Shown here one piece after another: positions 10,520 through 30,677 of a DNA stretch of 64,000 nt. The notes beneath the pieces are model-generated. The model made no database searches. It was not told the origin of the DNA and was given only the letters and a program-made list of their open reading frames with translations. Numbering within the stretch: the first letter of the stretch is position 1; each line of letters opens with the position of its first letter. A program made the position numbers and the translations under genes. This DNA is from an uncultured Acidobacteriota bacterium (GTDB lineage: Bacteria; Acidobacteriota; Terriglobia; Bryobacterales; UBA6623), in assembly GCA_963817465.1 (NCBI GenBank), contig CAWFOP010000007.1, forward strand, positions 302,856 to 366,855. The letters run 5' to 3'.

Positions 10520-10581
10520 TCGTTTACCTCTGTCGAGTCGCTCCGGTGCGCCGCTAAGGCCATCGGTGACGCTCGTAGCGG

Positions 10582-10859: not shown

Positions 10860-12986
10860 GAAGTCCTTACGCGAGATCTGGAGCCTCCGCATCATGGCGT
10901 TCAAGGTCGTCCGCGGCAATCCGAGCCGGTTCGCCGCCCGGCTGACGACTCCGCCGGTCTCCCTGAGCACGTGCAGAATGTGGTCCCGGTCCACCTGCTC
11001 CAGCGTACTATCGTGAGCGGATTCGAAGGATTCCGTGCGCAACTCGGCTAACGGAGCCCTAAGCTCGGCGCCCGTTGAAAGGATGACCGACCGCTCGATG
11101 AAGTTCTCCAGTTCGCGGACGTTCCCGGGCCAAGAGTACTGCACGAGAGCGGACATGGTCTCGGGCGAGATCGTGCGAACGTTCCGCCTTAGTTGCCCGG
11201 CGTATTTCTCTACGAAGTGGCGGGAGAGGATGGGAATGTCTTCGGCGCGGTCCCGGAGAGAGGGCATCGTGATCGGAAACACCTTCAAGCGGTAATAGAG
11301 ATCGCTTCGGAAGAGTTTGTCCCCCATCATCTGCTGCAAATTTCGGTTCGTCGCCGCCAGGAGCCTGACGTCGATCGGGATCGTGCGCGTGCCGCCGAGT
11401 CTTTCGAACTCCTTTTCCTGCAGGGCGCGCAGGAGCTTGGGCTGCAGGTCGAGCGGAATATCCCCGACCTCATCGAGTAACAGCGTTCCGCGGTGCGCCA
11501 GCTCAAAGCGGCCGATCTTGCGCGACAAAGCGCCGGTGAAGGCGCCGCGTTCGTAACCGAACAGCTCGCTTTCGAGCAGGCCGGTCGGGATCGCAGCGCA
11601 GTTCAATGTGATGAAGGGATGCTCACTGCGACCGCCTAGGTGGTGAATCGCGCGCGCCACCAGCTCCTTGCCCGTCCCGGTTTCACCCAGAATCAGCACC
11701 GTCGCCTCAGTCGGCGCAACGATCTCCACCTGCTGGAGAACGCGTTGCAAGGCGACCCCGCGCCCCACGATCCTTTCAAACGGAGCGCTGACAGGGAGAT
11801 CGTCTTGGACGCTCTCCTCTTTGCGCGGCTTGACGTCCTGCACAAACGCGGTCCACCGGAATGGGGCAAGGCTAAGAACGGCGCGGGTTTCGAGCACCCG
11901 GATGCGGGAGCCATCCTTGCAAACGTATTCCTTTTCGAAGGGCGTGCACGCGCCGTGGATCAAGGCCTCCTCGTGCGCCCGTTCGTCGAGCAGCGCGTGC
12001 TCGGGCGGAGTAAGATCCGGCCAATAAGGGGAGCCTGTAAGCAACTCTTCTTGGCTGTAACCCACCATCTCCAGGAATCCGTCGCTGGCGCTGGTTATGC
12101 GGTCAAATTCGCCTGCGACGACCCCGGTCTTGGGGTACCTAGGCCGGTCTCCGCCCTCGCCCCTTTCGCCGTTCTTTGCCTTCTGATCCGCTTCGTGGCG
12201 ATCGGTAAAGTCGCGCACGATGCTCGCATAACCTTGCAGTTGCTCGCGGTCGTCTTTGAGAGCGACCGTGAGCACGTTCGCCCAGAAGAGCGAGCCGTCC
12301 TTTTTGCGGCGCCAGCCCTGCGCTCCGAAGCGGCCCCTGGCGGCGGCTTCGGTCAACTCGACTTGAGGTTCCCCACATTGAGCGTCCTTCGCCGAATACA
12401 GCAGGGACAAATACCGCCCGACGGCTTCTTGCCGCTGGTGGCCGAAAAGCCGCTCGGCTCCCGAGTACCACGCGGCCACCCGTCCATCCGGGTCCAGCAG
12501 CAGCAGCGCGATGTCCTTTGCCCACACCGGTACGCCTTTCGACGCGCCGTTCGTTCGTGCAAGCCTTCCCAAGATCTTTTGGTCTGTCCCGTCCCGGAGG
12601 ACCAACAAATGCCGTTGGGGCAAAACGCTGGAACAGGCCGCGAAAAGAGCTTCTCGTGCGGCGCCATCGGGAAACAGCAGCGGAAGGGCGCCCTCTTGGC
12701 GCCCTTGCGTCAAAAGATCCCGCCAGAGGCCATCCACGCGCGGCAGGAAACTCGGGTCGACAAAGTCGTCAATCTTGCGTCTGAGAAGCTGATCTCTCGA
12801 GGATCCCAGCAGCTGGCCTGCGCCGAAGCTAGCTTCCAGGCATTCGCGGGAGTCGCCTGCGATCAAGACCGGTACGGAGGAGTGGTAGAGTACGGCCCGG
12901 AGCAAGAGCTCAAGCTGTTCGGAACCCTTTTCGGCCAACCAATCGCTGCTTCCCTGCCGCGTTGCGGCGGGCTTCACCATGTACAC
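10857..12986 (-). CDS. sigma54-dependent transcriptional activator (PAS-PAS-AAA+-Fis HTH enhancer-binding protein)
   Basis: Walker A GETGTGKE. GAFTGA loop (ERGAFTGA). C-terminal HTH AANRLGLPRTTLNAMMRRLQI. There are two PAS-like blocks (..AAWYSGAERLFGHQRQEAVGRYL.. and ..GFLEMVGYSQEELLTG..). Confidence 0.9.
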   Translation of the reverse strand: MYMVKPAATRQGSSDWLAEKGSEQLELLLRAVLYHSSVPVLIAGDSRECLEASFGAGQLLGSSRDQLLRRKIDDFVDPSFLPRVDGLWRDLLTQGRQEGALPLLFPDGAAREALFAACSSVLPQRHLLVLRDGTDQKILGRLARTNGASKGVPVWAKDIALLLLDPDGRVAAWYSGAERLFGHQRQEAVGRYLSLLYSAKDAQCGEPQVELTEAAARGRFGAQGWRRKKDGSLFWANVLTVALKDDREQLQGYASIVRDFTDRHEADQKAKNGERGEGGDRPRYPKTGVVAGEFDRITSASDGFLEMVGYSQEELLTGSPYWPDLTPPEHALLDERAHEEALIHGACTPFEKEYVCKDGSRIRVLETRAVLSLAPFRWTAFVQDVKPRKEESVQDDLPVSAPFERIVGRGVALQRVLQQVEIVAPTEATVLILGETGTGKELVARAIHHLGGRSEHPFITLNCAAIPTGLLESELFGYERGAFTGALSRKIGRFELAHRGTLLLDEVGDIPLDLQPKLLRALQEKEFERLGGTRTIPIDVRLLAATNRNLQQMMGDKLFRSDLYYRLKVFPITMPSLRDRAEDIPILSRHFVEKYAGQLRRNVRTISPETMSALVQYSWPGNVRELENFIERSVILSTGAELRAPLAELRTESFESAHDSTLEQVDRDHILHVLRETGGVVSRAANRLGLPRTTLNAMMRRLQISRKDF

Positions 12987-13107
12987 TCCCAGCGTCGTCG
13001 AGCACGCGGGCTACCCGGCCGCAGAATATCGTCGCGCGACGAAAGCTTTACTGAATCGTTAAGGGGACTTTAGAGCGGCCGTCCCGCGCTAAGCGTACCA
13101 CTTCGGT

Positions 13108-13141
13108 TGACCATGGGGCGTCAATCGACTTCGCGCGGTCA
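13108..13141. promoter_or_regulatory. tandem dyad pair D2: TGACC-ATGGGG-CGTCA / CGACT-TCGCGC-GGTCA
   Basis: Perfect dyad at 13108-13123. An 8/10 copy at 13126-13141 is offset by 18 bp. The pair lies in the divergent region between the EBP gene and the small membrane protein gene. Confidence 0.55.
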
Positions 13142-13265
13142 CATTCGCCGCGGCTCGAGACGCCGTCTCTCAGGCTCACAGACCCAACCCTTACGGTCAC
13201 GATACCGCGCGAACTCAATACGTTACATGCCGCGGCGCATGCTGACCGGCCCGGGCCGCGAGGAT

Positions 13266-13281
13266 TGGTCGGCTGCGTGCC
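13266..13281 (+). promoter_or_regulatory. candidate sigma54 -24/-12 promoter P2 (TGGTCGGCTGCGTGCC)
   Basis: GG-N10-GC with GTGC at -12, 30 nt upstream of ATG 13311. GAGGAG lies between the promoter and the start. Confidence 0.45.
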
Positions 13282-13310
13282 TTCCCTTAGGCCTCGAGGA
13301 GAACAAGAGT

Positions 13311-13502
13311 ATGCCTTTGATCAATTTGGTCATTGCCCTGATCGTGGTCGGCGTCCTGCTGTATTTGGTCAACCGGTACATCCCGATGGCCTCCAGCATC
13401 AAAACAATTTTGAACGTGGTCGTCGTGGTCGCGGTTTGCGTTTGGGTCTTGCAGGCGACCGGAATCTGGGGCGGGCTGGCCGACTACCGGGTCGGCCCTT
13501 AA
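13311..13502 (+). CDS. 63-aa two-TM membrane protein (Thivi_2564-like family)
   Basis: MPLINLVIALIVVGVLLYLVNRYIPMASSIKTILNVVVVVAVCVWVLQATGIWGGLADYRVGP. The internal ATG of track ORF 13107..13502 has GAGGAG upstream. The family name is recalled from memory. Confidence 0.65.
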   Translation: MPLINLVIALIVVGVLLYLVNRYIPMASSIKTILNVVVVVAVCVWVLQATGIWGGLADYRVGP

Positions 13503-15715: not shown

Positions 15716-15943
15716 TCGTACGGTTACAGATATGAAATCACAGCATGAGCTCGCCCGCGAGGCGAAAGCCCGGAGCTGATCGGCATCGCTCCCATGCGGT
15801 TCGCCGCAGCCTTCGCCGGCATTACAAACCGATCCAGCGGCGACTCCAGAAGTATCTCGAGATTCGTCTCATTTCCACGGCTGCGCCTCGCCGTCGGTCG
15901 GTCGGTTAGTTCTTTTTTTAAGGTTAGAAGAGTGGGAAAACCA

Positions 15944-16507
15944 ATGACGACATCACATCAAATTTCGCCGTGCAAATCCAACGACATGCCGGTCATGACC
16001 CGACAGCAGTACGCCGCCGCCTATAACCACGGTTACCCCAAGACAATTGGATTCATGCTTTCGCGCGGAGCGTCCCGCGACATATCCGAAGACATGGCGC
16101 AGGCGGCGTGGGCAAAAGGTTGGCAATATCGAGGGCAGATCCGCGATCCCTTGAAAGTCGATTCGTGGGTGAATTCGATCGCATTCAATCTTTTCCGGGG
16201 TTCGTTCCGCCAGGCGCCGACCGTAGAGCTGCTCCCCGCCGACCATCCGGCTTCGCCGGGAACGAGCGCCGCTACGATCGACTGTCAGCGGCTCCTCGCG
16301 CAGTGCTCGCCTTCCGAACGAGAGTTGATCGACGGATGCTACGTGGCGGGCTATACCAGCGCGCAGCTCGGCCGCCGCTTGGGCTGTTCGGCTGTTGCAG
16401 TGCGGGTCCGCCTGCTGCGGCTTCGTCGCCGGCTCCAGATAGCCGTGAAGCCAAGGGCCCCCTTTGTGGCTGACGCCGTCGCCGCGCGCCGGGTATCGAG
16501 TGAATGA
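15944..16507 (+). CDS. ECF-type RNA polymerase sigma factor
   Basis: Region 2-like: ISEDMAQAAWAKGWQYRGQIRDPLKVDSWVNSIAFNLFRGSFR. Region 4 HTH: ELIDGCYVAGYTSAQLGRRLGCSAVAVRVRLLRLRRRL. Start taken at ATG 15944. Confidence 0.8.
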   Translation: MTTSHQISPCKSNDMPVMTRQQYAAAYNHGYPKTIGFMLSRGASRDISEDMAQAAWAKGWQYRGQIRDPLKVDSWVNSIAFNLFRGSFRQAPTVELLPADHPASPGTSAATIDCQRLLAQCSPSERELIDGCYVAGYTSAQLGRRLGCSAVAVRVRLLRLRRRLQIAVKPRAPFVADAVAARRVSSE

Positions 16508-16588: not shown

Positions 16589-16622
16589 TGACCGCAAGAC
16601 GTCAAGTGGCGGTCAGCGGTCA
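16589..16622. promoter_or_regulatory. tandem dyad pair D5: TGACC-GCAAGA-CGTCA / TGGCG-GTCAGC-GGTCA
   Basis: Perfect dyad at 16589-16604. A 9/10 copy at 16607-16622 is offset by 18 bp. Confidence 0.55.
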
Positions 16623-16837: not shown

Positions 16838-17614
16838 ATGAGTTACTTGAAAATTGCAACGATCGGCTTGTCCCTGGCGCTTCTTGGCGCCGTGATATTG
16901 CCAAACGCTTCGGCGGATGAATGGAATCGAAAGACCGTGGTCACATTCAGTGGGCCCGTGGAGATTCCGGGAGTTCACCTGACGGGCTGGGGCGTATTGC
17001 CGGCGGGCACATACGTGTTCAAGATCCTGGACTCGCAGTCCAATCGGCACATCCTGCAGATCTTCAACAAGGAAGAAACGCAGGTTTATGCCACGATCCT
17101 CGCCATCCCCAACTATCGCCTCAAGGCGACCGACAAGACCGTGATCACCTTCAGCGAGAGGCCGGCCGGAGAGCCGGAGGCGCTCCGCGCCTGGTTCTAT
17201 CCGGGGAGGAACTGGGGCGAGGAGTTCGTGTATCCGAAGCAGAGAGCGATCGAGCTCGCGAAAGAGACCAACCAGGTCGTTCTCTTCACGCCCGCTGAGA
17301 TCGAAGAAGAAGTCGCCGAGCCGATCGAGTCGGCGGCGGAGCCTGTAGTGGTAGAGCTGAAGCAGGCGCCTGTGAAGGCAATCAATCCTAGCGGCGAAGA
17401 GGTTGAACTGGCCCAGGCGGTGACGCCTCCCCCAGCCGCGGAGGTCGCGCAGGCGCCCGCACCGGCTCGGCGCCGGACACCCGTACAAACGGCGCAGAAC
17501 ATTCCGCAGACTCTCCCGAATACGGCGGGCCTGTTGCCGCTGTTCGGGCTGTTCGGAATGCTGGCTTTAGGCGGAGGCGCGGCGCTCCGGCTTGTACGGC
17601 GTCGCATCGGCTAA
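16838..17614 (+). CDS. secreted acidobacterial protein with LPNTAG + hydrophobic + RRR C-terminal sorting-signal-like tail
   Basis: Signal peptide MSYLKIATIGLSLALLGAVILPNASA. Conserved-looking N-domain (TVVTFSGPVEIPG..YVFKILDSQSNRHILQIFNK..). C-terminus QTLPNTAGLLPLFGLFGMLALGGGAALRLVRRRIG. Confidence 0.7.
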   Translation: MSYLKIATIGLSLALLGAVILPNASADEWNRKTVVTFSGPVEIPGVHLTGWGVLPAGTYVFKILDSQSNRHILQIFNKEETQVYATILAIPNYRLKATDKTVITFSERPAGEPEALRAWFYPGRNWGEEFVYPKQRAIELAKETNQVVLFTPAEIEEEVAEPIESAAEPVVVELKQAPVKAINPSGEEVELAQAVTPPPAAEVAQAPAPARRRTPVQTAQNIPQTLPNTAGLLPLFGLFGMLALGGGAALRLVRRRIG

Positions 17615-18408: not shown

Positions 18409-20142
18409 ATGAAAGATACCCATGTCGGCGCGCCTGTCCCTAGACGAAATCGGAGTCCGATCAGGCCCGGCCGGCATGAAACCAAAGCGCGTGGAATGGC
18501 CGTGCTCACTACGCCCCTGATCAACAAGGGGACGGCCTTCACGACGGAGGAGCGAATTGATCTGGGCCTCACCGGCCTGCTCCCTCCGGCCATCAGCACT
18601 CTGGAAGATCAAACGCGGCGCGCCTACATTCAATACCAGCGGCTGCTCGATCCGTTGAGCAAGAACGTCTACTTGACTGCGTTGCACGACCGCAACGAGG
18701 TTCTGTTCTACCGGCTGCTCGCCGATCATCTGCGGGAGATGATCCCCATCGTCAACGACCTGACCGTGGGTCTGGCCGTGGAGCGATATCACCATGAGTT
18801 CCGGCGGCCCGGAGGCGTGTATCTGTCAATCGACCACCCTGAAGAGATCGAGGAGGCGCTTGGAAATCTCCACGCCGGCCCGGACGACATCGACCTCGTC
18901 GTCGCGACCGATGGCGCGCAGGTTCTGGGCCTCGGCGACTGGGGTGTCGGCGCCATCGAGATTTCGATCGGCAAGCTGGCGATCTTTACCGCCGCCGGAG
19001 GAATCGACCCGTTGCGGGGGATCCCGGTCGTGCTCGACGTCGGCACCAATCGGGAAAGCCTGCTCAACGATCCGATGTATATCGGGAACCGGCACGGCCG
19101 GGTGGGCGGGGAGCGCTATGACGCATTTATCGACGCTTACGTCCAAGCGGTGCGGAAGTTCTTTCCGAAGGCCGTGCTGAACTGGGCGGACTTTACAAGC
19201 GCCAGCGGCCGCCGCATTCTCGAGAAGTACCGCGGCGAGTCTCCGACCTTCAACGACGAACTGCAGGGCACCGGCGCCATAACGCTCGCGGCCGCGATCT
19301 CTGCAGGGCGCGTCTGCGGAGCGCCGCTGCGAAACCAACGCGTCGTGATCTTCGGCGCGGGTGTGGCCGGCATCGGAATCGCCGACCAGCTCCGCGACGC
19401 CATGGTGCGGGAAGGCCTGTCGAAGCAGGATGCGATCGCGCGCATCTGGTGCGTGGACCGGGCCGGACTTCTCCGCGAAGACATGGCGGGAGTTCAGCTC
19501 GACCCCTACCAGGCGCCGTACGCCCGCCCGAAGGCGGACGCTCACGCCTGGCAACGCTATGGAGCCGACATCGGCCTGGCCGAAGTCGTGCACCAAATAC
19601 ATCCGACGATGCTGGTCGGCGCGTCGGCTTCTCCCGGCGCCTTCACGAAGGCGATCGTCCAAGAGATGGCCGCCCACGCGCCGCGGCCGATCATTTTTCC
19701 GATTTCGAGCCCCGCCTCGCTGGCCGAGGCGACGCCGGCCGACCTGATCGCATGGACCAACGGCCGCGCCCTGGTCGCCACCGGCAGCTCCTTCCCTCCT
19801 GTCACCCACAAGGGAACGACCTACGTCATCGGCAACGTCAGCAACGCACTACTCTATCCGGGGCTGAGCCTCGGCGTCATCGTATCCCGGGCCAGGCGAA
19901 TCACGGACGGCATGTTGGCCGCGGCGGCGAACGCCGTATCCAGCCTCGTCGCCGTTCATTTGCCTGGAGCGTCCTTGCTCCCCCATGTGGACAACTTGCG
20001 CGGCGTCTCATCGACAGTAGCCCTCGCGGTAGCCGCGGCGGCGGTGGCGGAAGGGGTTGCCGACTTCAGGCCGGGCGACATCGTTCAACAAGTGCTTGAG
20101 GCGATGTGGAAACCCGAGTACTGCCCGCTGCGGGCGATTTGA
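18409..20142 (+). CDS. NAD(P)-dependent malic enzyme (large, SfcA/MaeA type)
   Basis: LINKGTAFTTEERIDLGLTGLLPP.., VATDGAQVLGLGDWGVGAIEISIGKL, FNDELQGTG, VIFGAGVAGIGIA. The start (ATG 18409) is uncertain. Confidence 0.85.
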   Translation: MKDTHVGAPVPRRNRSPIRPGRHETKARGMAVLTTPLINKGTAFTTEERIDLGLTGLLPPAISTLEDQTRRAYIQYQRLLDPLSKNVYLTALHDRNEVLFYRLLADHLREMIPIVNDLTVGLAVERYHHEFRRPGGVYLSIDHPEEIEEALGNLHAGPDDIDLVVATDGAQVLGLGDWGVGAIEISIGKLAIFTAAGGIDPLRGIPVVLDVGTNRESLLNDPMYIGNRHGRVGGERYDAFIDAYVQAVRKFFPKAVLNWADFTSASGRRILEKYRGESPTFNDELQGTGAITLAAAISAGRVCGAPLRNQRVVIFGAGVAGIGIADQLRDAMVREGLSKQDAIARIWCVDRAGLLREDMAGVQLDPYQAPYARPKADAHAWQRYGADIGLAEVVHQIHPTMLVGASASPGAFTKAIVQEMAAHAPRPIIFPISSPASLAEATPADLIAWTNGRALVATGSSFPPVTHKGTTYVIGNVSNALLYPGLSLGVIVSRARRITDGMLAAAANAVSSLVAVHLPGASLLPHVDNLRGVSSTVALAVAAAAVAEGVADFRPGDIVQQVLEAMWKPEYCPLRAI

Positions 20143-20418
20143 CAAGGAGTACCGTCCAACTTGGCAGACGCGGCGCCTGTTTGCGGCAGCGTTCGCGGGT
20201 CGGGGCGACGGCCCGGATGGTAACGATTCTGTCCGTCGCAAGGGCGCCCTAGTCTCTGAACGCTGTCCGATGCTGTGCGATGTTGCCGGAGCAGTCCGTT
20301 GATCATATATGTCACACCTCCCCCATCAGGCGTCTCAGGTTCGAAGCGTGCCCAAGGCTCAGCGCGTCATTCTTGGCGCTCGCCCCGTCACCGCTTACGA
20401 GGCCGCCGCTGCCTGACT

Positions 20419-20452
20419 CAACCATATACGGTCATTTGACGATGGGGCGTCA
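20419..20452. promoter_or_regulatory. tandem dyad pair D3: CAACC-ATATAC-GGTCA / TGACG-ATGGGG-CGTCA
   Basis: Perfect dyad at 20437-20452; its ATGGGG spacer is identical to that of D2. An 8/10 copy at 20419-20434 is offset by 18 bp. Confidence 0.5.
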
Positions 20453-20564
20453 GTTCCGCCTCGGCACAGATCGGCTCTACAAACCAGCCCGCTCTCTACT
20501 GCGGCGGCGGTAACCGGCGCGGTTTCAGTGTGAGCTCCGCGCGCTCGACGCCCGGCGTCGTGAT

Positions 20565-20580
20565 TGGCCATCAGAGTGCG
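20565..20580 (+). promoter_or_regulatory. candidate sigma54 -24/-12 promoter P3 (TGGCCATCAGAGTGCG), no obvious intact gene downstream
   Basis: GG-N10-GC with GTGC at -12. The preceding GATTGG is identical to that of P2. Confidence 0.35.
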
Positions 20581-20833
20581 CTAAGGTTCGCCGGGAACGA
20601 TTCCGTGTCGAGAAAAACACGCGCCCTGGCGTTGGGCCAGTCAAACGCCGATAGGCAAGAGGGCGCTGTCCAGCTAGGGCAAGCCGCCGTCAAAGGCGTG
20701 TCGGACGGGCTCGGCGCCACCCCCGCCCAGGTGAAAGGGTTCCGGCGGTTGGCGGAAGCGACGCTGAATCCAGCGCGTTGGCTCGCCTCCATGAAGCGCA
20801 ACTCGAGATTTATGTCCGCGTGAGGCGCCGCTC

Positions 20834-20950
20834 ATGATACAAGCTCAATACACAGCGACCTACCACCGGGGCTACTCCAAGACCCTGGGATTCATGCAGT
20901 CACGCGGGATGTCTCTCGGCGTATCCGAGGACTTGGCCCAGGGCGCCAAT
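20834..20950 (+). pseudogene. truncated paralog of the ECF sigma factor (N-terminal ~37 codons only)
   Basis: MIQAQYTATYHRGYSKTLGFMQSRGMSLGVSEDLAQGA aligns with MTRQQYAAAYNHGYPKTIGFMLSRGASRDISEDMAQAA of the 15944 gene. Similarity stops about 50 nt before the convergent GH gene ends. Confidence 0.5.
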
Positions 20951-20995
20951 CCGAAGTCGCACGTCCGGCGCGTACGACTCCTCCTCAATCAGATT

Positions 20996-22171
20996 TCAGG
21001 GCCGGCGCACTATGGCTTCGAGGAATGGCGTTTGGCCTCGTTCCACAGCGACGGCCGCATAAAGGTACATTGCCGCTGACCAACTCTGCCAATCCTGCCC
21101 TCGCGCGACGCCGTCCGAAGCGCCAAACCATTCGTTGAAACCGTAAGGCAACGACGCGTCGCGCCCCCGCCCGACCAGTTCGGTCAGCGCCGCCAGTTTT
21201 TCGCACGCCAGTTCCCGGCGGCCCGCGGCCACTAGCGCGGCGACATAGAACCCGCAGACGAAAGGCCAGACTCCCCCGTTGTGGTATTCGCCCGGCAGGT
21301 TGAAACGCTCGTACCGGGGTCGCCAATCCGGATCTTCGCGTTGGATATAGGGGAATAGGCACGGCGGCAGATCGAGCGCCAGAAAGCCGCGCTCCCGCAG
21401 CGCCTTGCACTCCGCTTCAACCCACGCCACAATCGCCTGCGCTCGCGATGGTGACGCCAAGCCGCTGAGGATCGCCAGGGAGTTGCCCAGAAGGTCGAAT
21501 CGTTCACTATTGCTGACCTTATAAGCCCAAAGGGCATAGTATGGCTTGTTCGCCACGGTGAGCCCCTCATGCACGTGGCGCATCCCCTCCCCGCCGCGAA
21601 TGTCGAGACAATCCAGGATCGCCGCTACCCCCTCAGCCTCCTGGTCCAAACCGTACAGCCTGAGATACATGTAGACCAAGGCGTTCACATACAGCCCGTA
21701 CCCTAGAACCCATTGCTCGTCCCGCCAATCGCTCGTCGGCAGTTGCGCAACGACGATCATGTCGTCCGGACTCTGGTAGCGCATCCACTGCATCGCCAAA
21801 CTCACTGCCGACTCTAGAAAACGAGCTTCTCCCGTTTTGCGCCGATACAGCGCAACGCCGATCAAAAACAGGGGCGTCGTGTCACTCGCGCCGCGGTCGT
21901 CGGGATCGTGCACCAAGGACGGGATATGTCCGAGTCGAGTCTGTGTCACCGCAAGCTTTTCCAGCACGCGCCGCAACGATGCGGTCAGATCCTCGTCCTC
22001 GCTGACAAGAACCCCGAAAGCGGCGATCATGAGGTCTCGCGTGTAAGGTTCCGGATATCCCCACCCAGCGGTCCGAGGCAAGTCCTCGAACGGCCCGTGA
22101 GCGTTGTGCCGCAGCACGTTCAGCGCCGCCTGCTTCATTTCGTCGATCCGCGGTTGAGAGAAGGCGGACAT
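20996..22171 (-). CDS. (alpha/alpha)6-barrel glycoside hydrolase, GH100 (neutral invertase)/amylo-alpha-1,6-glucosidase-like
   Basis: GEYHNGGVWPFVCGFYVAALV, SDWRDEQWVLGYGLYVNALVY and QDWQSWSAAMYLYA are typical of this fold. Specificity is unknown. Confidence 0.6.
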   Translation of the reverse strand: MSAFSQPRIDEMKQAALNVLRHNAHGPFEDLPRTAGWGYPEPYTRDLMIAAFGVLVSEDEDLTASLRRVLEKLAVTQTRLGHIPSLVHDPDDRGASDTTPLFLIGVALYRRKTGEARFLESAVSLAMQWMRYQSPDDMIVVAQLPTSDWRDEQWVLGYGLYVNALVYMYLRLYGLDQEAEGVAAILDCLDIRGGEGMRHVHEGLTVANKPYYALWAYKVSNSERFDLLGNSLAILSGLASPSRAQAIVAWVEAECKALRERGFLALDLPPCLFPYIQREDPDWRPRYERFNLPGEYHNGGVWPFVCGFYVAALVAAGRRELACEKLAALTELVGRGRDASLPYGFNEWFGASDGVARGQDWQSWSAAMYLYAAVAVERGQTPFLEAIVRRP

Positions 22172-22175
22172 GGCG

Positions 22176-23318
22176 CTACCGGATACCGAGCCGTGTTGTC
22201 ATCAAGCTCACAAAGCGTTTCGCCACGACGCGATAGTCGAACAGCTCGACAGCCCGCCGCCTGCCCGCTTCGCCCATGCGCCGGCGCAGCTCGCCGTCTT
22301 GCATTAGATCCATCAAGTAGTTCGCAATGTCGTGTACGCTCGCCCGGTACTCCGCCGTCCGGCCGCCGGCGAAGACGACGCGGTGCCCTTCTTCAAAACC
22401 CGACTCGTCCCCCAGCGTGGCTTCTTGGATGCGCACCTCTTGCGCAACGCCTGCAAGCAGCGCCGTCTCGCCGTGGACAAGGGTATCGAGCATACCCATC
22501 GCCCTGATTCCGATGACCGGTTTGCCGCACGCACCCGCTTCCACCTGAACCATTCCAAAGCCTTCGAGCCTTGACGGGCCTGCGTAGATGTCGCAGGCCG
22601 CGAGCAGATACGGCATGAAGTTGCGAGAAATGATACTGGTCGTAAATGTGACGCTCTTGTCGATCCCCAGGTGGGAGGCGAGCCGCAAATCAATCTCGTT
22701 TTGCAGATTGGTGCGGGACTGCGGCCAGACCTTGCATACATACTTCCAGTCGGGAGCTTTTTGCCCGTTGACCGCGAGGGCCTGCATGACCTCTTGGGCG
22801 CCCTTGGATGTTGCGTCTCCTCCCACGGTCAGCACCAAGAGTTGTCCCGGCGCCATGCCGAGCACCTCGCGCACGGCTTGGACCTTGGGATCGAACGAAT
22901 CGCGCGGCACGAAGGCGTCGGTATCGCAACCGACCGGCAAGACCTCGATGTTGCTTCCATCGATCCCGTCGCGAACGTACATCTCCTTGACCCAATTAGA
23001 AGTCACCAGGATCAACGGCAAGGCGTTGAGCACCTCGTGGTAGTTCGCGATATAGCCGTCCGCAACCAGCCACGGGACAGGCTGCGCTCCGTGTCGTTGC
23101 GGATGCAGCACCAATTGAGGCGTGTGGCCCCAATACCCGATGCCCAACACCACATCGGGTTTGAACCAGCGGTAGTACCACTCCTTCTCCTGGGCCGATT
23201 CGAAATTAACCGATCGGGCGTCCACGCCGATCTCCGTCAGGCCGCGGGCGATCAGAGCGCCCTGGGTGGCAAGCCCGCCGGGCGAGGCCGGATAGTCATA
23301 GAGAACGAGAACTTTCAT
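22176..23318 (-). CDS. GT4-family glycosyltransferase
   Basis: 380 aa. C-terminal GT-B signature: PSRLEGFGMVQVEAGACGKPVIGIRAMGMLDTLVHGETALL (EX7E region). Confidence 0.8.
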   Translation of the reverse strand: MKVLVLYDYPASPGGLATQGALIARGLTEIGVDARSVNFESAQEKEWYYRWFKPDVVLGIGYWGHTPQLVLHPQRHGAQPVPWLVADGYIANYHEVLNALPLILVTSNWVKEMYVRDGIDGSNIEVLPVGCDTDAFVPRDSFDPKVQAVREVLGMAPGQLLVLTVGGDATSKGAQEVMQALAVNGQKAPDWKYVCKVWPQSRTNLQNEIDLRLASHLGIDKSVTFTTSIISRNFMPYLLAACDIYAGPSRLEGFGMVQVEAGACGKPVIGIRAMGMLDTLVHGETALLAGVAQEVRIQEATLGDESGFEEGHRVVFAGGRTAEYRASVHDIANYLMDLMQDGELRRRMGEAGRRRAVELFDYRVVAKRFVSLMTTRLGIR

Positions 23319-23341
23319 GTTCGGCCTGTGTCTGGGCGTCG

Positions 23342-24028
23342 CTATTTGCCGGGTGGCTCCGGAATGCGCTCGCGCTCCACCCAGCGGCGAGCGGTCTCAG
23401 GATCGCTGAAGCCCCAGAACGCCTCGCAGCGCGGAGTCGTCCGAGCCTCCCAACTGTCGGGGCTGAAGCCGTAACCTTCGGTCATGAGGCGGTACTTTTG
23501 GAGCCAAATACTCTCGCTCAGCTCTTCGCGGATCGGCGCCTCCGGCTGCGCGCGCGGCAAGTATGCGCCGCCGCCATCCTCGAATCCGAAAAGCCACAAA
23601 GACTCGGTCGAAAGCGAGCCATCCGCCCACAAGCCGACGACCGCGCGACAAGTCTCCTCATGACGGCGGTGCCGCGTGTACTCGCCTCGTGGGCCGTGCG
23701 TCAGGACCACGCCGTACGTGGCCGCGGGAAGCTGTGAAAGAATGGCCTGCCGAACCTGAGCGTCATCCAAGGGGAACTGCTCCGGACCGTCGTCGAGCGC
23801 GCCCATTGAACCCACCGCGCCGAGTTCCGCCGCCACGCGCCGAAACCTAGGCGCACGGTCGGGATCGTCGGAGCGGGTGAGCGAAGCGACGTGCCACCGC
23901 CAGCGCGGTCGCAGCAGGATGGCGCCGCCGGCCCACAGAACCTCGTCGTCCGGGTGAGCGACAACTACCGCCGCCCCGGCGGAAGAGGCTCCCGGCCCGC
24001 TAGGCAACGACGCACTCACTCCCCGCAT
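23342..24028 (-). CDS. PIG-L/LmbE-family N-acetylglucosaminyl deacetylase
   Basis: VVVAHPDDEVLWAGGAI (the PIG-L signature AHPDDE) and ..LTHGPRGEYTRHRRHEE. Confidence 0.8.
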   Translation of the reverse strand: MRGVSASLPSGPGASSAGAAVVVAHPDDEVLWAGGAILLRPRWRWHVASLTRSDDPDRAPRFRRVAAELGAVGSMGALDDGPEQFPLDDAQVRQAILSQLPAATYGVVLTHGPRGEYTRHRRHEETCRAVVGLWADGSLSTESLWLFGFEDGGGAYLPRAQPEAPIREELSESIWLQKYRLMTEGYGFSPDSWEARTTPRCEAFWGFSDPETARRWVERERIPEPPGK

Positions 24029-24052
24029 GCAGGCTCCATTTGATTGCTGCTG

Positions 24053-24415
24053 TCACCGCGGCTCCCGCGCCGCCTTGATTGCCTGATAGCGCACGTCATG
24101 AAAGATCATCCGCCTCACTTGGTCGGTGATCTCCTGCCAAAACTTGATGAAGTATCCGGCCCGTTGAATGCCCATGACCTCGTATCTCTTGTCTTCGAGG
24201 ATTGCGATCACGGCTTCGGTCTCGGCGCGCTTGGCGGCGGTCTGTTTGACGGCAACGGTTCGAAATGAAGCGGCGACGCCGTCGAATTCGTCGTTCACTT
24301 CGCGCTTGATACGTTCAGCCCACTCCACCTGACTTGGCGTGCCATGCAGCGTCGCCGCCAGGCCGCCAAGAGCCGCTCCGCCGTCGTCTTCCCACTTTGC
24401 GAGATCGCAGGTCAC
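24053..24415 (-). CDS. hypothetical protein (120 aa)
   Basis: GTG start with GAGGAA upstream. Contains GTPSQVEWAERIKREVNDEF. No family could be assigned. Confidence 0.45.
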   Translation of the reverse strand: MTCDLAKWEDDGGAALGGLAATLHGTPSQVEWAERIKREVNDEFDGVAASFRTVAVKQTAAKRAETEAVIAILEDKRYEVMGIQRAGYFIKFWQEITDQVRRMIFHDVRYQAIKAAREPR

Positions 24416-24449
24416 AGGGCGCTTCCTCGGTCTTTTGTCTCACCTTTTC

Positions 24450-24671
24450 CTAACGCACGACCGACGCGATCGTCAGGGTCGAGAAGCGACGCCAGGATAT
24501 CCGGGCCAAGACCACGCAAAGCGCACTCAGGCCCAACGCAATGCCTGCGGGCACAAAGCCGACCGGACGAGACAACACCAGCATCGCCGGACTGAAGACG
24601 AAAGCGACTACAAGCAAGGCAACCGTCAGGTTGTAGTCCGTCCCGGTATAGGTTTGGCGAGATTTGGTCAT
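24450..24671 (-). CDS. small two-TM membrane protein (73 aa)
   Basis: ATG 24671 with GGGAGG 7 nt upstream. NLTVALLVVAFVFSPAMLVL and GFVPAGIALGLSALCVVLA. Confidence 0.5.
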   Translation of the reverse strand: MTKSRQTYTGTDYNLTVALLVVAFVFSPAMLVLSRPVGFVPAGIALGLSALCVVLARISWRRFSTLTIASVVR

Positions 24672-24700
24672 TGGCAACCTCCCGGTTGTCGAGTAGATCG

Positions 24701-24723
24701 AGGGCAGAGGCGGGATCGAACCG
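24701..24723 (-). other. tRNA 3'-end-like fragment (T-loop + 3' acceptor strand), possible att remnant
   Basis: The minus strand reads CGGTTCGATCCCGCCTCTGCCCT (GGTTCGATCC T-loop, 5-nt stem, 7-nt acceptor strand, discriminator). There is no 5' half and no cloverleaf. Confidence 0.4.
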
Positions 24724-24750
24724 TTCTATTTGGACAGAGTTCTATTTGGA
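24723..24750. repeat. 12-bp direct repeat GTTCTATTTGGA x2 (4-nt spacer) in AT-rich divergent promoter region
   Basis: Read directly: 24723-24734 and 24739-24750. Confidence 0.85.
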
Positions 24751-24890
24751 AAGCGCGGCCGAGCGCGAGCGAACCTCGCTCATTTATTAACTAGTATCGG
24801 TTACATATCTTGCCACGTCAATCGCTCGTGCGTTAATTTGATGAGTGATGCTAAACCGCACTGGGTTAATCGAAACCCGCTAGGAGCACC

Positions 24891-25814
24891 GTGGACGTTT
24901 CATTGCGAATCCGACAACGTCTGGATGAGCTGGGACTCGACCAGAAGGACCTCGCCTCCGCGACGCAAGTCACCGAGTCGTACATCTCCCAGCTTTTGAC
25001 CCGCAGGAAGGCGCCGCCGGCGCCGGACCGCACGGACATCTACGAAAAGATCAGCTCGTTCCTGAAGCTCCCGGGAAAAGAGCTCGAGAAGCTGGCCGAG
25101 GCGCAGCGGCTGCACGAGGCGAAGAGAAGGGTCGCCGAACATCCCGGTCCGCTGTTTCAGGATTTTCGAGAGTTGCTGCTGCGTAAGTGCGCGCCGGAGA
25201 ACCGGCAAGAGGTGCGCCGGATCTTCGAGAAAGAGGCCTTTGGCGAGCTCGAGCGCTTGGTTACGCAAAAAGTCCTGGAGGCGGCTCAGCGCGCCGCCCG
25301 TGAGGAGCTCCAGCGGGAAGAGCAAGTCCGCTCGATGGCGCAAGTCGGCGGCCGCAGCTACCAGGACCTGCGGGTGGCCATCTTGGAGTTCCTGGATACG
25401 GACATCTTGCACGTCTCGGCCGACAGTTGCGTCTCCTTCCTGGAACCAACGATCGACTCCTGGGACATCAACCTAGCGACGTTCAGCATGGAGGTCGTCC
25501 TCAACCGGCAAATGGCGAAAAACGGCACGAAGCGCTACGAGTTCGCCGAGCAACCGGCGCAGGATTCGCCGGTTCTCGAGCCGGGGTTCCACGACTTCCT
25601 GGCCAATGACGCAATGAGCGGGGACGCAGCGGAAGACGAGATCGAGTTTCTGAAACGGCTGCGCTTCACGGGAAGCCGACCCACGTCGCTGTACTACTAC
25701 CGCGAATTGCAAAACCTCAGGGACCCGCTCCACTTCACGCCCGCAGGCACGGCTGCAGGAGACGATGTAACGGACGATGGTTTGGGCGCTCCACCGAGAA
25801 GAAGATTCTCATGA
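24891..25814 (+). CDS. XRE-family HTH protein with large uncharacterized C-terminal domain
   Basis: IRQRLDELGLDQKDLASATQVTESYISQLLTRRK is an XRE/Cro-type HTH. Its stop overlaps the next ATG (ATGA at 25811). Confidence 0.7.
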   Translation: MDVSLRIRQRLDELGLDQKDLASATQVTESYISQLLTRRKAPPAPDRTDIYEKISSFLKLPGKELEKLAEAQRLHEAKRRVAEHPGPLFQDFRELLLRKCAPENRQEVRRIFEKEAFGELERLVTQKVLEAAQRAAREELQREEQVRSMAQVGGRSYQDLRVAILEFLDTDILHVSADSCVSFLEPTIDSWDINLATFSMEVVLNRQMAKNGTKRYEFAEQPAQDSPVLEPGFHDFLANDAMSGDAAEDEIEFLKRLRFTGSRPTSLYYYRELQNLRDPLHFTPAGTAAGDDVTDDGLGAPPRRRFS

Positions 25815-28126
25815 ATGACGCCGCCAGAGTCAAGGAGATCGCGTTCATCGGGGACCACCTTCCGCGCAAATGCGGCATCGCCACCTTTACCGCGGACTTA
25901 CTCAGCGCTGTCGCCGACGCCCATCCCCGCACGCAATGTTTCGCGGTCTCGGTCACCGACGTAGCATCCGGCTATGACTACCCGGATGTGGTTCGCTTCG
26001 AGATCGAAGAGCAGGACTTGTCGTCATACCTGCGCGCGGCGGATTTTCTCAACATCGGCAACGTCGACATCGTCTGCCTGCAGCACGAGTTCGGGATCTT
26101 CGGAGGAGCGGCCGGCGGTCACATCCTGGCGCTGCTGCGCGAACTGCGCATGCCGGTCGTGACGACGCTGCACACCGTGTTGAATCAGCCTCGAACGGAC
26201 CAACGCCGCGTGATGGAGGAATTGACCGCGTTGTCGAGCCGGCTGGTCGTGATGACCGAGCACGGCCGCCGCATACTGCACGACGTCTATGGCACACCGC
26301 CCGCCAAGATCGACATGATCGAACATGGCATTCCGGACATGGGCTTCTTCGATCCGGCGCAATTCAAGGGCCAGTTCGGCGTGCAAGGCAGGACCGTCTT
26401 GCTGACGTTTGGATTACTTTCTCCGAATAAAGGCATCGAGTTTGTCATTAACGCGCTGCCCGCCATCGTCGCGCAGTTCCCGCAAGTGGTTTACATTGTG
26501 CTGGGCGCCACTCACCCCAACGAGCTCCGTAGCCAGGGCGAGGCCTACCGCGTGAGCCTCGAGATGTTGGCGAAGAAACTCGACGTGGATCGGAACGTGA
26601 TTTTCTACAACACGTTCGTCGAGTTGGATGCACTGAAGGAGTTTATTGGCGCATCCGATGTGTATATCACGCCCTACCTGAACGAGACGCAAGTTACCTC
26701 GGGGACGCTCTCCTACGCTTTTGGCGCCGGGAAGGCGGTCGTGTCGACGCCATACTGGCACGCAGCCGAGCTCTTGGCTGACGATCGCGGCGTGCTGGTG
26801 CCCTTTCGCGATGCGGAAGCGATCGCACGGGCGGTGATTTCGTTGCTCGCCGACGATGCCAGGCGCGACGCGATGCGAAAAAAGGCCTACCGCCTCGGTC
26901 GCGATATGGTGTGGAGCAACGTGGCGCACCTCTATATGCGCTCATTCGAGCGCGCGCGGGTGGACTGCGCCGCGCACGCTCAACGGTCGCTCGTCACCAA
27001 GACTCTCGACCAGAGACCCGGTGAGTTGCCGAGGCTGAAGCTGGACCACCTGCTGCGAATGACGGATTCGACCGGCGTTTTCCAGCACGCCGTCTTCGAC
27101 GTTCCGAACTTTTCCGAAGGCTACTGCACCGATGACAACGCACGCGCGTTCATCTTGGCCGTGCGGCTTGGCGAAGCAGGCGAGGAATCGGGGCATGCGC
27201 GGTCTCTGGGCGTCACATCGGCGGCGTTCCTCCACCATGCGTTCGACCCCAAGACGAAGCGCTTCCACAACCACATGAGCTTCGACCGCGCCTGGCTGGA
27301 CGACCCAGGTTCCGAGGACTCCCACGGCCGTGCGTTGTGGGCCCTTGGCGTCGGCGTCGGGCGTTCGCCCTTTCGCGGCCTCCAGATGATCGCCGGCCAA
27401 CTCTTCGCACTCGCGTTGCCGCCGTCGGCGGAGTTCTCATCGCCGCGCGCTTGGGCGTTCGTACTGCTCGGAATTCACGAGTACTTGCGCCGCCTGAGCG
27501 GCGACAGCCTCGTGACCGCAATTCGCGAGACGCTTACGGCCAGGCTCTCCGATCTCTTTGTGCGCAACGCAGCAGACCCGGACTGGTGTTGGTTCGAACA
27601 GGAACTGTCGTACGACAACGCGAAGCTCGCACACGCCCTGATCGTCACAGGTCACGCCACCGGCCAAGCCCGGGTTCTGGATCAGGGGTTGCGCGCTCTG
27701 CGCTGGCTCACCGAAGTACAGGTGTCTGAGAAAAGATATTTTCGACCGATCGGCAGCAACGGCTTCCATAAACGGGGCGGCGAGCGAGCCGCTTTCGATC
27801 AACAGCCCATCGAGGCGTATGCGACCGTTTCGGCGTGCCTTGAAGCCTACCGCGCCACGTCCGACTTTTGGTGGTATGAGCACGCGCAACGCGCCTTTGA
27901 TTGGTTCATCGGATCGAACGACCTGGGCCTCGACCTTTACGTCCCGGAAAGCGGCGGCTGCGCGGACGGGTTGCACATGGACCGGGTCAACGGCAACCAG
28001 GGGGCCGAGTCCACACTGGCCTTCCTGCTTTCGCTTGTCGAGATGCGGCTCGCCCAGAACATGGTTACCAGCTTTAAGGGGCCAGTCGCGACGGCAAGTA
28101 GTTATCAATGCACGAACCGACATTAA
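25811..28126 (+). CDS. GT4 glycosyltransferase fused to a C-terminal (alpha/alpha)-barrel-like domain (771 aa)
   Basis: N-terminal half is GT-B (..LLTFGLLSPNKGIEFVINA.., YITPYLNETQVTSGTLSYAFGAGKAVVSTPYWHAAELL). The C-terminal ~380 aa is rich in W/D/helix motifs (GYCTDDNARAF.., DSHGRALWALG.., SYDNAKLAHALI.., NQGAESTLAFLLSL). Confidence 0.75.
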   Translation: MNDAARVKEIAFIGDHLPRKCGIATFTADLLSAVADAHPRTQCFAVSVTDVASGYDYPDVVRFEIEEQDLSSYLRAADFLNIGNVDIVCLQHEFGIFGGAAGGHILALLRELRMPVVTTLHTVLNQPRTDQRRVMEELTALSSRLVVMTEHGRRILHDVYGTPPAKIDMIEHGIPDMGFFDPAQFKGQFGVQGRTVLLTFGLLSPNKGIEFVINALPAIVAQFPQVVYIVLGATHPNELRSQGEAYRVSLEMLAKKLDVDRNVIFYNTFVELDALKEFIGASDVYITPYLNETQVTSGTLSYAFGAGKAVVSTPYWHAAELLADDRGVLVPFRDAEAIARAVISLLADDARRDAMRKKAYRLGRDMVWSNVAHLYMRSFERARVDCAAHAQRSLVTKTLDQRPGELPRLKLDHLLRMTDSTGVFQHAVFDVPNFSEGYCTDDNARAFILAVRLGEAGEESGHARSLGVTSAAFLHHAFDPKTKRFHNHMSFDRAWLDDPGSEDSHGRALWALGVGVGRSPFRGLQMIAGQLFALALPPSAEFSSPRAWAFVLLGIHEYLRRLSGDSLVTAIRETLTARLSDLFVRNAADPDWCWFEQELSYDNAKLAHALIVTGHATGQARVLDQGLRALRWLTEVQVSEKRYFRPIGSNGFHKRGGERAAFDQQPIEAYATVSACLEAYRATSDFWWYEHAQRAFDWFIGSNDLGLDLYVPESGGCADGLHMDRVNGNQGAESTLAFLLSLVEMRLAQNMVTSFKGPVATASSYQCTNRH

Positions 28127-29580
28127 ACCTCCAGCGAACGGAGACGCTTCTTGCTCCCAACCAATCGCGAGTCCTCTTGAGAGCATTCAATGCGGGAGAC
28201 GCCGACCGGGTTGGGCGGGTCATCACTCGCGTCCTGTCACTGCCCGAGGCGAAGGTTGCCCTGCTCCTCGCGGAGGTGGACTCTGAATTCGCTCAAAGGC
28301 ACTCGGAATTGCGAAAACGACTCCAGCGGCGCTTCGACCAGGTTTGCGGAGATCACGTTCACGCGTCTGCGATCTCGCAGGAGCGCCAGCTGTTGATTGG
28401 GTCGTATTTCCTTGCTGAGTACTCGCTCGAGTCCGCCGCGTTGTTCAATCCTTCAATTGTTCCGCACCCGGACCAACGCCGGTTGGCGTCCGGATCGCTT
28501 CGATTCATCCTGAGTCTCCGGGCGACAGGGGAAGGACATATCTCTTCCATCACGTTCCGGACGGGCGTGATCGACTCGAACAACCGCATCACCGTGCAGC
28601 ACCCTGCAGGGACGCTGACCGAGCCGGAACAGATCCCCAACGCCAGATACGAAACTGCTCTGTTTGCACGAAAGCTCTGCGAACTGGGCGTGCAGTCTGA
28701 GTTCGTCCAACGCGTCATGGCGAGACTTGAAGAGTCATTCTCGATAGGCGGCCTGCGAGAAGCCCTTGACGCGGAGTTGGACCGACCGTCATCGGACGAC
28801 CCGACGGACGAGAATCGGAGCGCGGCGAAAACAGTCTTGCTCCTCGCGCAGTCGAACTACGAGGTCCGTTTCCAGGCTGACGAGCAACTCTCTTCGCGAA
28901 TTCTCTTCCCGGCCACGCCGTCCCAGCGCAACGGAATCGAGGATGCTCGGTTCGTCCAGTTCCACAAGCCCGACGGAAGCCGCGTTTACTTCGCGACGTT
29001 TACGGCGTATGACGGCAGGGTCATCATGCCGGAGCTGGTGCAGACCGCGGACTTCTTGACGTTTCGATTCACCACTTTGAACGGACCCGCGGCCCAAAAC
29101 AAAGGAATGGCGCTGTTCCCGCGTATGATCGAGGGGCGCTATGCGATGCTTTCCCGCCAGGACAACGAGAGCATCCACATCATGTTCTCCGACAACGTCC
29201 ATTTCTGGAACGAGCACAAGGTTCTTCTCAAGCCGCGGTTTGCGTGGGAGCTTGTCCAGCTTGGCAATTGCGGGTCTCCGATCGAAACCGAGGACGGCTG
29301 GCTCGTCCTGAGTCACGGCGTGGGCCCGATGCGGCAGTACTGCATTGGCGCGTTCCTGTTGGATCGTAAGGACCCTAGTAAGGTTATCGGTCGACTCGAA
29401 GAGCCGCTGCTGCAACCCAACCGCTTTGAGCGCGAAGGCTATGTGCCCAACGTCGTCTATACCTGCGGGGCCCTGCTTCACGGGGCGCAGCTGATCATTC
29501 CCTACGGTCTCGCCGATCACGCCACCAGTTTCGCGACGGTCCCGGTAAAGAATGTCCTTGCCGCCATGGTTGCGCCTTAG
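28108..29580 (+). CDS. GH130-like glycosidase/phosphorylase with ~190-aa N-terminal extension
   Basis: The C-terminal beta-propeller-type sequence (IEDARFVQF..FATFTAYDG.., NKGMALFPRMIEGRYAMLSRQDNESI.., GNCGSPIETEDGWLVLSHGVG.., YVPNVVYTCGAL..IPYGLADHA) matches GH130. It overlaps the GT4 gene by 19 nt. Confidence 0.7.
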   Translation: MHEPTLNLQRTETLLAPNQSRVLLRAFNAGDADRVGRVITRVLSLPEAKVALLLAEVDSEFAQRHSELRKRLQRRFDQVCGDHVHASAISQERQLLIGSYFLAEYSLESAALFNPSIVPHPDQRRLASGSLRFILSLRATGEGHISSITFRTGVIDSNNRITVQHPAGTLTEPEQIPNARYETALFARKLCELGVQSEFVQRVMARLEESFSIGGLREALDAELDRPSSDDPTDENRSAAKTVLLLAQSNYEVRFQADEQLSSRILFPATPSQRNGIEDARFVQFHKPDGSRVYFATFTAYDGRVIMPELVQTADFLTFRFTTLNGPAAQNKGMALFPRMIEGRYAMLSRQDNESIHIMFSDNVHFWNEHKVLLKPRFAWELVQLGNCGSPIETEDGWLVLSHGVGPMRQYCIGAFLLDRKDPSKVIGRLEEPLLQPNRFEREGYVPNVVYTCGALLHGAQLIIPYGLADHATSFATVPVKNVLAAMVAP

Positions 29581-29663
29581 ATCTCCTCCCAGCGGCGTCC
29601 GCCGAGCCTCGCGACTTAACCACAATGAATGAATAATATGATTTCCTGGACCCTATCCATACA

Positions 29664-29692
29664 TTGACATGGCGCTTAAAATAACCGATAAT
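29664..29692 (+). promoter_or_regulatory. sigma70-like promoter candidate TTGACA-N17-GATAAT
   Basis: TTGACA at 29664-29669, a 17-nt spacer and GATAAT at 29687-29692, in an AT-rich gap about 120 nt upstream of ATG 29815. Confidence 0.35.
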
Positions 29693-29814
29693 AGTTAAGA
29701 ATGGGCCTTTACCCATTCTCCGCCATCCGAGCTAGGCCGGATGGTCGGATTCCAAGCTTAGCCATCCATCGGAAACCGGTGAGCGCTCAGGCGGCGCTGG
29801 CAGGAGGGCGTCCA

Positions 29815-30624: not shown

Positions 30625-30677
30625 CGCTGACACACAATGCGCCGCGTGGCGGCGAACAACGTCCCTAGGAGGGCGAC

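Follow-up and report, generated by a model that had tools for sequence, protein, structure and literature searches.

The closest described counterpart of the locus reported here is the HrpR/HrpS-sigma-54-HrpL cascade of Pseudomonas syringae, in which an extracytoplasmic function (ECF) sigma factor without an adjacent anti-sigma factor (HrpL, ECF32) is expressed from an enhancer-dependent sigma-54 promoter (PMC8999054). In this report, we analyze a 64,000-nucleotide (nt) stretch of DNA from an uncultured Acidobacteriota bacterium, called the window hereafter and numbered from its first letter. Our subject is a short segment of it, 20419-20947, that carries two dyads (the second, perfect one being D3), a predicted sigma-54-type promoter (P3) and the first 38 codons of a paralog of an ECF-like sigma factor gene that is intact elsewhere in the window. 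Our preferred reading, to which we assign a probability of roughly 0.72, is that this segment is what decay has left of an operon's second, paralogous copy, the rest of which would have been deleted.

Like the HrpRS-HrpL system, the intact modules examined here comprise, as far as their genes can be read, a gene for an enhancer-binding protein and, ahead of a sigma gene, upstream dyads with a GG-N10-GC promoter. Unlike that system, they belong to other protein families and another phylum, their sigma gene comes last in an operon opened by a Thivi_2564 small membrane protein gene, their activator has PAS domains, and their regulon is apparently one of envelope or general stress, not type III secretion; moreover, all that the locus at 20419-20947 preserves of such a module is a truncated relic. 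Full-length members of the sigma family resemble group IV (ECF) sigma-70 factors in that they consist of sigma-2 and sigma-4 only, within 150-190 aa, but the full copy in the window falls just under the TIGR02937 cutoff, and the fragment lacks region 4 altogether and keeps only about 28 residues of region 2. With truncated paralog pseudogenes, which result in bacterial genomes from segmental duplication and then deletion, the locus shares a 5' stump with a promoter, a sharp break, an unconserved open reading frame (ORF) and an intact paralog nearby, and a relative shows other decayed copies of the module; unlike the usual examples, its regulatory part is unusually well kept, and its stump faces a convergent operon. 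We class the relic with these pseudogenes, as a truncated paralog together with its promoter; it is a case of ordinary genome decay and no new type of element.

The sigma factor fragment

The fragment lies at 20834-20947 on the plus strand. A repeat search within the window aligned 20827-20942 with 15988-16103 over 116 nt at 71% nucleotide identity, and a BLASTP comparison of the translation from the ATG at 20834 with the intact sigma factor, read from its Met over 15995-16108, gave 22 identical residues out of 38 (E 1e-13); against the sigma factor of a related locus, L098, the figure was 24 out of 38. The likeness between 20834-20950 and 15995-16110 on which a preliminary description of this DNA relied is therefore significant. 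That description had counted about 37 codons, with about half the residues identical, and had placed the end of similarity about 50 nt short of a convergent glycoside hydrolase (GH) gene, which agrees with our measurement of 48 nt between the end of the sigma likeness (20947) and the GH stop codon at 20996-20998. The end is sharp: it falls just past codon 38 and just ahead of a Trp that never varies within the family, where AQAA is followed by WAKGW in the intact protein and AQGA by NPKSH in the fragment.

What is left is region 2.1 and the start of region 2.2, hence a truncated pseudogene. The 38 aligned residues stop before the invariant Trp of region 2.2 and do not make up a complete sigma-2 domain (regions 2.1-2.4), no region 4 (the sigma-4 helix-turn-helix) lies downstream, and a tblastn search in every frame across the 64-kb window found no other sigma piece, region-4-like sequence included. 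Limited to region 2.1 and the beginning of region 2.2, the stump cannot act as a sigma factor. All of the 52 sigma family members compared (52/52) extend beyond residue 38.

In the source genome, the fragment is annotated as part of an 81-aa ORF (P0053, 20834-21079), which occurs in its own genome only. The final 43 residues of this ORF stem from a read-through tail unrelated to sigma (20948-21079, plus strand) that consists of the 48-nt junction and then of the strand antisense to the last 28 GH codons. The ORF has no match in Pfam or NCBIfam and no relative among 5.8 billion clustered proteins, and HMMER, run exhaustively against 1.84 billion representatives, matched it only to the sigma factor of the window and, over 34 residues, to a repetitive 455-aa protein. 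A metagenome scan with an N-terminal alignment recovered relatives at 45% identity or less. Neither in related genomes nor in metagenomes does the short ORF stand alone as a conserved gene, and, judged from these comparisons, the annotated 81-aa 'gene' is not a real gene. As a 97-aa ORF just upstream (20530-20823) has no homologs either, the claim that no intact gene follows the promoter holds.

Past selection on the fragment can still be read from its codons. Its 38 codons contain no stop and no frameshift, and it keeps seven of the eight positions conserved in a sigma family alignment that was built without it; at those conserved codons, six changes are synonymous and one is non-synonymous (p ~0.003 under neutrality, by our own binomial estimate). 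When compared with three functional sigma factors (the main copy of the window, L098 and L097), it shows 20-24 identities out of 38, a synonymous divergence (dS) of 1.05-1.6 and a ratio of non-synonymous to synonymous divergence (dN/dS) of 0.20-0.23, which is within the range found among the functional sigma genes themselves (0.10-0.28). A dN/dS of about 0.2 at a dS of at least 1 indicates an old paralog that once worked as a sigma factor, and the lack of stops and frameshifts suggests that its truncation is comparatively recent. In our preferred reading, the second operon copy would once have been functional, its sigma factor diverging under purifying selection.

The reference copy, an intact ECF-like sigma factor, is encoded at 15995-16507(+). 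It matches Sigma70_r4_2 (26.1 bits, cutoff 25.7) and comes just below the threshold for TIGR02937 (41.0 versus 42.9); its region 2 is undetected by Pfam. In the relatives P0007, P0011 and P0014, region 2 is recognized by Sigma70_r2 at 27-30 bits (cutoff 24). This protein and its family thus have the ECF composition, that is, Sigma70_r2 with r4 or r4_2, about 150-200 aa and no regions 1.1 or 3. The family members (150-190 aa) are confined to metagenome-assembled genomes (MAGs) of Bryobacterales and other Acidobacteriota and to soil and peat metagenomes, and the nearest relatives in a scan of genome contigs are 52-54% identical. The true start of the sigma gene is probably the ATG at 15995 and not 15944 or 15794; since the N-termini of the family align at ATG 15995, the 237-aa sigma factor of the source annotation (start 15794) is almost certainly too long.

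Promoter, dyads and the eroded operon

In related loci, elements of the kind found at 20419-20947 form a single operon. A divergent enhancer-binding protein gene is followed by dyads, a sigma-54 promoter, a Thivi_2564 small membrane gene, an 80-aa gene, a 106-127-aa gene and the sigma gene, after which come dyads and a promoter again, a gene for a 250-aa secreted protein and a malic enzyme gene. We found this layout in eight loci (L088, L093, L095, L096, L097, L098, L099 and L001), some of which have an M48 peptidase gene and an lmo0937-type gene in addition. Promoter and sigma ATG are 256 nt apart at P3 and 254 nt apart in L093, and within the interval at P3 the segment 20734-20790, GFRRLAEATLNPARWLA, resembles the N-terminal part of the protein encoded by the 106-127-aa gene ahead of sigma in L098, L097 and L096 (tblastn E 0.006-0.03), the alignment having a 16-residue gap and the C-terminal half being lost. 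Taken together, the operon layout of the relatives, the 256/254-nt spacing and the remnant in between lead us to regard D3/P3 as the promoter of the fragment itself, the whole being one eroded operon. The preliminary description had treated D3/P3 as an orphan copy, a view that the joint arrangement of dyads, promoter, small genes and sigma in the relatives, and the remnant between P3 and the fragment, do not support. Further deletions would have taken most of the small genes that once separated promoter from sigma.

The remnant lies inside an ORF that fills the gap between P3 and the fragment (20605-20823, plus strand; 72 codons from the GTG at 20605, 97 from 20530) and ends 11 nt before the ATG of the fragment. 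Its GC content by codon position (0.63/0.56/0.75) is coding-like. It has no Pfam or NCBIfam match and, in either the 72- or the 97-aa form, no homolog among 5.8 billion proteins; it is probably not a functional gene.

Just upstream of the intact sigma factor of the window, the 54 codons of 15745-15909(+) preserve the C-terminal end of the 106-127-aa gene (58% over 36 aa, E 1.5e-10); the 80-aa gene and the N-terminal half of the 106-127-aa gene are missing. In L001 (Bryobacterales MAG LejiaD_62_10), a DksA/TraR zinc-finger gene at 4784-5191(+) (Pfam zf-dskA_traR, 1e-11) sits between a second Thivi_2564 copy and sigma instead of the 80-aa and 127-aa genes. No family match was obtained for the 106-127-aa gene of the relatives; the gene of 80-108 aa upstream of sigma (L098 9368-9610, L096 9440-9682, L097 6442-6768) gave a faint GerE/LuxR helix-turn-helix match (E 0.0067). 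Placed beside a sigma gene without a recognizable anti-sigma factor, this conserved pair of genes could encode its regulators. As for Thivi_2564, no mention was found in the literature searched.

P3 itself, ATTGGCCATCAGAGTGCGCT, lies at 20563-20582 on the plus strand, with its GG at 20566-7 and its GC at 20578-9, that is, 12 nt apart, and a transcription start predicted near 20591. We compared it with a position weight matrix (PWM) built from nine GG-N10-GC sites of other genomes, each located 28-31 nt ahead of a Thivi_2564-family gene; both sites of the window were excluded. Out of about 128,000 positions on the two strands of the window, this matrix ranked P2 (13264) first and P3 (20563) second. 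P2, likewise of the GG-N10-GC form, belongs to the D2/P2 module (13108-13283, plus strand; dyad 13108-13123, promoter 13264-13283), which is predicted to drive the Thivi_2564 gene at 13311-13502 and probably also drives the downstream genes through sigma. Relative to the generic, Escherichia coli-type sequence TGGCACG-N4-TTGCW, P3 has five mismatches, a poor match that places it outside the set with three or fewer; a scan of the window with that consensus was uninformative, giving 75 matches versus 99 expected. The third/fourth best PWM match in the window, ACTGGCCCTTGAATTGCGCC at 26356-26375(-), is inside and antisense to a 771-aa glycosyltransferase ORF (25811-28126); with no dyad noticed nearby, it may be a chance match.

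Upstream of P3 stand two putative sites for an enhancer-binding protein, the perfect dyad D3 (20437-20452, TGACGATGGGGCGTCA), a putative upstream activating sequence of the TGACS-N6-SGTCA family, and an imperfect dyad (20419-20434, CAACCATATACGGTCA) that has two mismatches to this pattern and is in an 18-nt phase with D3. Perfect copies of the pattern number five in the window (10844, 13108, 16589, 20437 and 46347), against an expectation of 0.38, and none of 100 shuffles reached five. Four of them, D3 included, have a weaker partner exactly 18 nt away (10826/10844, 16589/16607, 20419/20437 and 46329/46347), and for the fifth (13108) only a weak half-site partner, at 13126, was seen by eye. 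For the dyads at 10844, 13108 and 16589, orthologs occur in the syntenic loci L001 and L006 and in a contig from the ENA described below, and the spacer of the imperfect dyad at 20419 (ATATAC) resembles the GTATAC-like spacers at orthologous sites.

The likely, predicted binder of these dyads is a 709-aa enhancer-binding protein of PAS-AAA+-HTH_8 architecture (10857-12986, minus strand; Pfam Sigma54_activat 2.3e-68, HTH_8 1.3e-10, PAS domains). Its gene is divergent from D2/P2, and the same layout with a Thivi_2564 gene is found in L095, L097 and L098. Tandem dyads stand 111-147 nt upstream of P3, a putatively activator-dependent promoter, and the gene of this candidate activator lies in the window; the distance from dyad to promoter is 129 nt at P3 and 72-189 nt in the other modules. 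Between 20143 and 20418, where a second activator gene might have left traces, we found no remnant of one.

How alike the two modules of the window are depends on the part compared. Over 17 nt, D3 (TTGACGATGGGGCGTCA, 20436-20452) and D2 (TTGACCATGGGGCGTCA, 13107-13123) agree at 16 positions, a score reached by 5 of 1,000 shuffles, and share the spacer ATGGGG reported earlier; the D2 dyad proper, at 13108-13123, reads TGACCATGGGGCGTCA. GATTGG, also reported, does precede both promoters. Beyond the 17-nt dyad and the promoter core, no significant alignment exists between D2/P2 and D3/P3, nor is the pairwise comparison of promoter and leader significant. Since their flanks do not align, we consider them two members of one site class and not a recent block duplicate, so that the earlier statement that D3/P3 repeats the D2/P2 module is right as to class (dyad 16/17, PWM ranks 1 and 2) and wrong if taken to mean a copied block. 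A proposed homology between the leaders and ribosome-binding sites of P2 and P3 (TCGAGGAGAACA versus TCGAGAAAAACA) was dropped, as 520 of 1,000 shuffles matched it. The spacer of D2 and D3 is the same although the synonymous sites of the fragment are saturated and the remaining regions no longer align, and at orthologous sites of other genomes the dyad spacers vary (ATAGGG, AAATGC, GTATGT). Either selection on the spacer or a local gene conversion may explain the identity.

Synteny and competing histories

To the right of the remnant is an intact GH100/GDE_C-like glycoside hydrolase gene (20996-22171, minus strand, identified with Pfam), the first of a block of carbohydrate genes at 20996-33675. 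The preliminary description had supposed that the insertion or rearrangement of this block cut a locus with an intact sigma paralog. That model draws on the sharp end of the likeness, 48 nt from the GH stop codon, and on the more distant relatives L001 and L006, in which synteny with the window runs from 7739 to about 20200 and breaks after the malic enzyme gene, VWA and sortase genes standing there instead of glycan genes.

A closer relative, ENA ERZ28493158 contig ctg4075477 (816 kb), in which the loci L095 and L096 merge into a 35-kb region (contig 305694-340693), gives a different picture. It carries an ortholog of the main module of the window, with a dyad, TTGACCATAGGGCGTCA, and flank nearly the same as D2, the 258-aa secreted protein (p258) at 79% identity and a YflT homolog; the malic gene that closes this ortholog breaks off near residue 270. 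A second module follows, which is intact and comprises a dyad, a Thivi_2564 gene, genes of 80 aa and 109 aa, sigma, dyads, p255 and a malic gene of full length; 54 nt past this malic enzyme gene lie the convergent GH gene (84% aa identity over 390 of 391 residues), GT4 (88%) and PIG-L (70%), and then the gene order of the window. The slot that holds a ~530-nt remnant in the window is thus that of a whole module in the relative, and an intact sigma paralog does occur at the syntenic site of one related genome, within this second module.

Because the relative shares the order, the malic-GH adjacency must predate the truncation, and the block is no recent insertion. The GC content of the glycan block (0.58-0.66) does not differ from that of its flanks; the other half of the sigma gene is found neither at the far side of the block nor elsewhere in the window, and no mobile-element signature was seen at the junction. 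A locus cut by insertion of the carbohydrate genes is, in our judgment, very unlikely.

In the history that we prefer, a deletion would later have removed sigma from codon 39 onward, probably together with paralogs of the genes that follow it (p258 and malic enzyme), and would thereby have joined the stump to the 3' flank of a GH gene that was already nearby. Remnants of malic enzyme or p258 after the breakpoint were not found. That the module duplicates and decays repeatedly is indicated by the relative, which holds a third copy, 14.4 kb away, that is 98% identical to the second at the nucleotide level over 2.65 kb and internally deleted. These 98%-identical copies are truncated differently at each end, which suggests gene conversion or recent segmental duplication, and the enhancer-binding protein gene of one copy is split into three ORFs.

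Another possibility is that the copy was never complete, a patch containing dyads, promoter, bits of small genes and the first 114 nt of sigma having been placed in the malic-GH spacer by illegitimate recombination or template switch. The segment is indeed only ~530 nt long and lacks the Thivi_2564 and 80-aa genes, its flanks hold no detectable remnants of an enhancer-binding protein or p258 paralog, and the malic-GH spacer of the relative is just 54 nt. Yet a dS of ~1.2 and a dN/dS of ~0.2 relative to all available functional sigma genes point to a long-diverged, functional paralog as the source and not to the resident main copy; such a paralog must then have existed in this genome or in a donor, and in the relative whole modules occupy the slot. 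We therefore hold a partial copy to be unlikely.

An artefact of assembly would make 20947/20948 a chimeric join across the repeat formed by two sigma paralogs. The source is one 538,727-bp contig of a metagenome assembly in a single NCBI/ENA record, and paralogous modules are known to cause misassembly, but the sigma copies share only 71% of their nucleotides and no long exact repeat, the break is not at the edge of a shared stretch as a collapse would give, and the malic-GH order is seen independently in the relative. We consider this explanation extremely improbable.

Several observations weigh against the decay of a second operon copy as we reconstruct it. The fragment is closer to the main sigma factor of the window (22/38) and to that of L098 (24/38) than to the sigma factor in the second module of the relative (17/38); orthology with that module is for this reason unproven, and an independent duplication or gene conversion is possible. 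L001 and L006 have no second module between malic enzyme and the VWA and sortase genes, the remnant of the 106-127-aa gene scores weakly (E ~0.006 in a tiny search space), and the relative, a metagenome contig assembled from long reads at 6x, shows evident frameshifts, so that some of its 'fragments' may be assembly errors. Finally, the regulatory motifs are almost perfectly kept in spite of the saturated synonymous sites of the fragment, and they could still be under selection, in which case the locus would not be a pure relic.

L001 and L006 carry the VWA and sortase genes directly after malic enzyme, and the 64-kb window contains no homolog of either. D3/P3 as the ortholog of a promoter of these VWA-sortase genes was rejected, as neither genome has a dyad or promoter there. 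In the window, the p258 protein (16838-17614, plus strand) ends in LPNTAG, a hydrophobic stretch and RRR, which amounts to an LPXTG-like sortase signal.

Possible present activity and the wider regulon

With dyads and promoter intact, transcription from about 20591 upon action of the activator is plausible, and the locus may still give a junk transcript antisense into the GH gene whenever the activator is on. No function is indicated for such a transcript. Had a function been retained, the transcript would act as an antisense RNA on GH-GT4-PIG-L or would express the 72-aa ORF or the 81-aa region 2.1/2.2 stump. It is true that preservation is far better in the dyad (16/17 to D2) and the promoter (PWM rank 2) than around them, that no intrinsic terminator separates P3 from the GH gene, and that both ORFs are open, the 72-aa one with a coding-like GC content at third positions. 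Against this, neither ORF is conserved anywhere, there is neither an Rfam match nor a fold signal, and a recent deletion would explain the preservation equally well, the fragment itself being undecayed. A function kept to this day seems improbable to us.

The searches for RNA features gave the following results. At a permissive threshold, Rfam returned a single chance snoRNA match in 12-24 kb of the window; a scan of 20000-21200 for sigma-70 promoters and terminators found nothing; and folding of the putative leader (z -0.44) and of a junction hairpin at 20957-20979 (z -1.28) was not unusual. A more specific and highly doubtful idea is co-option, in which P3 would fire with the stress regulon and terminator-less read-through antisense RNA would lower the expression of the convergent GH-GT4-PIG-L genes; if true, it would link an envelope-stress signal to glycan metabolism via the promoter of a dead gene.

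The dyads also delineate a putative regulon in the window (10826-10859, 13108-13141, 16589-16622 and 46329-46362). The genes so marked are a Ysc84/PG_binding gene (9563-10741, minus strand) with OmpA (7727-9517, minus strand), the Thivi_2564-M48-lmo0937-sigma genes, and the gene of the 258-aa secreted protein with the YflT-like and malic enzyme genes. The minus strand contributes one more, an ORF near 46100 for a small membrane protein (MLLLIVIL...GGGYYGHSRWG), which follows a sigma-54-like site at 46248-46263(-). From its gene content, this set looks like an envelope or general stress regulon.

Taken alone, the relic matters little, and its use lies in the correction of annotation, the 81-aa 'gene' being unreal and the annotated sigma start too far upstream. 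Its context is more useful, as it points to an apparently undescribed regulon in Bryobacterales-like Acidobacteriota, which combines a PAS-type enhancer-binding protein and tandem TGACC-N6-GGTCA sites with repeated duplication and decay of the module. The predicted sigma-54 promoters of this regulon would control the expression of small membrane or stress proteins and of three further products: a peptidase of family M48, a surface protein of LPXTG-like type and the ECF-like sigma factor. It would thus offer a concrete, testable sigma-54-to-ECF cascade outside Proteobacteria.

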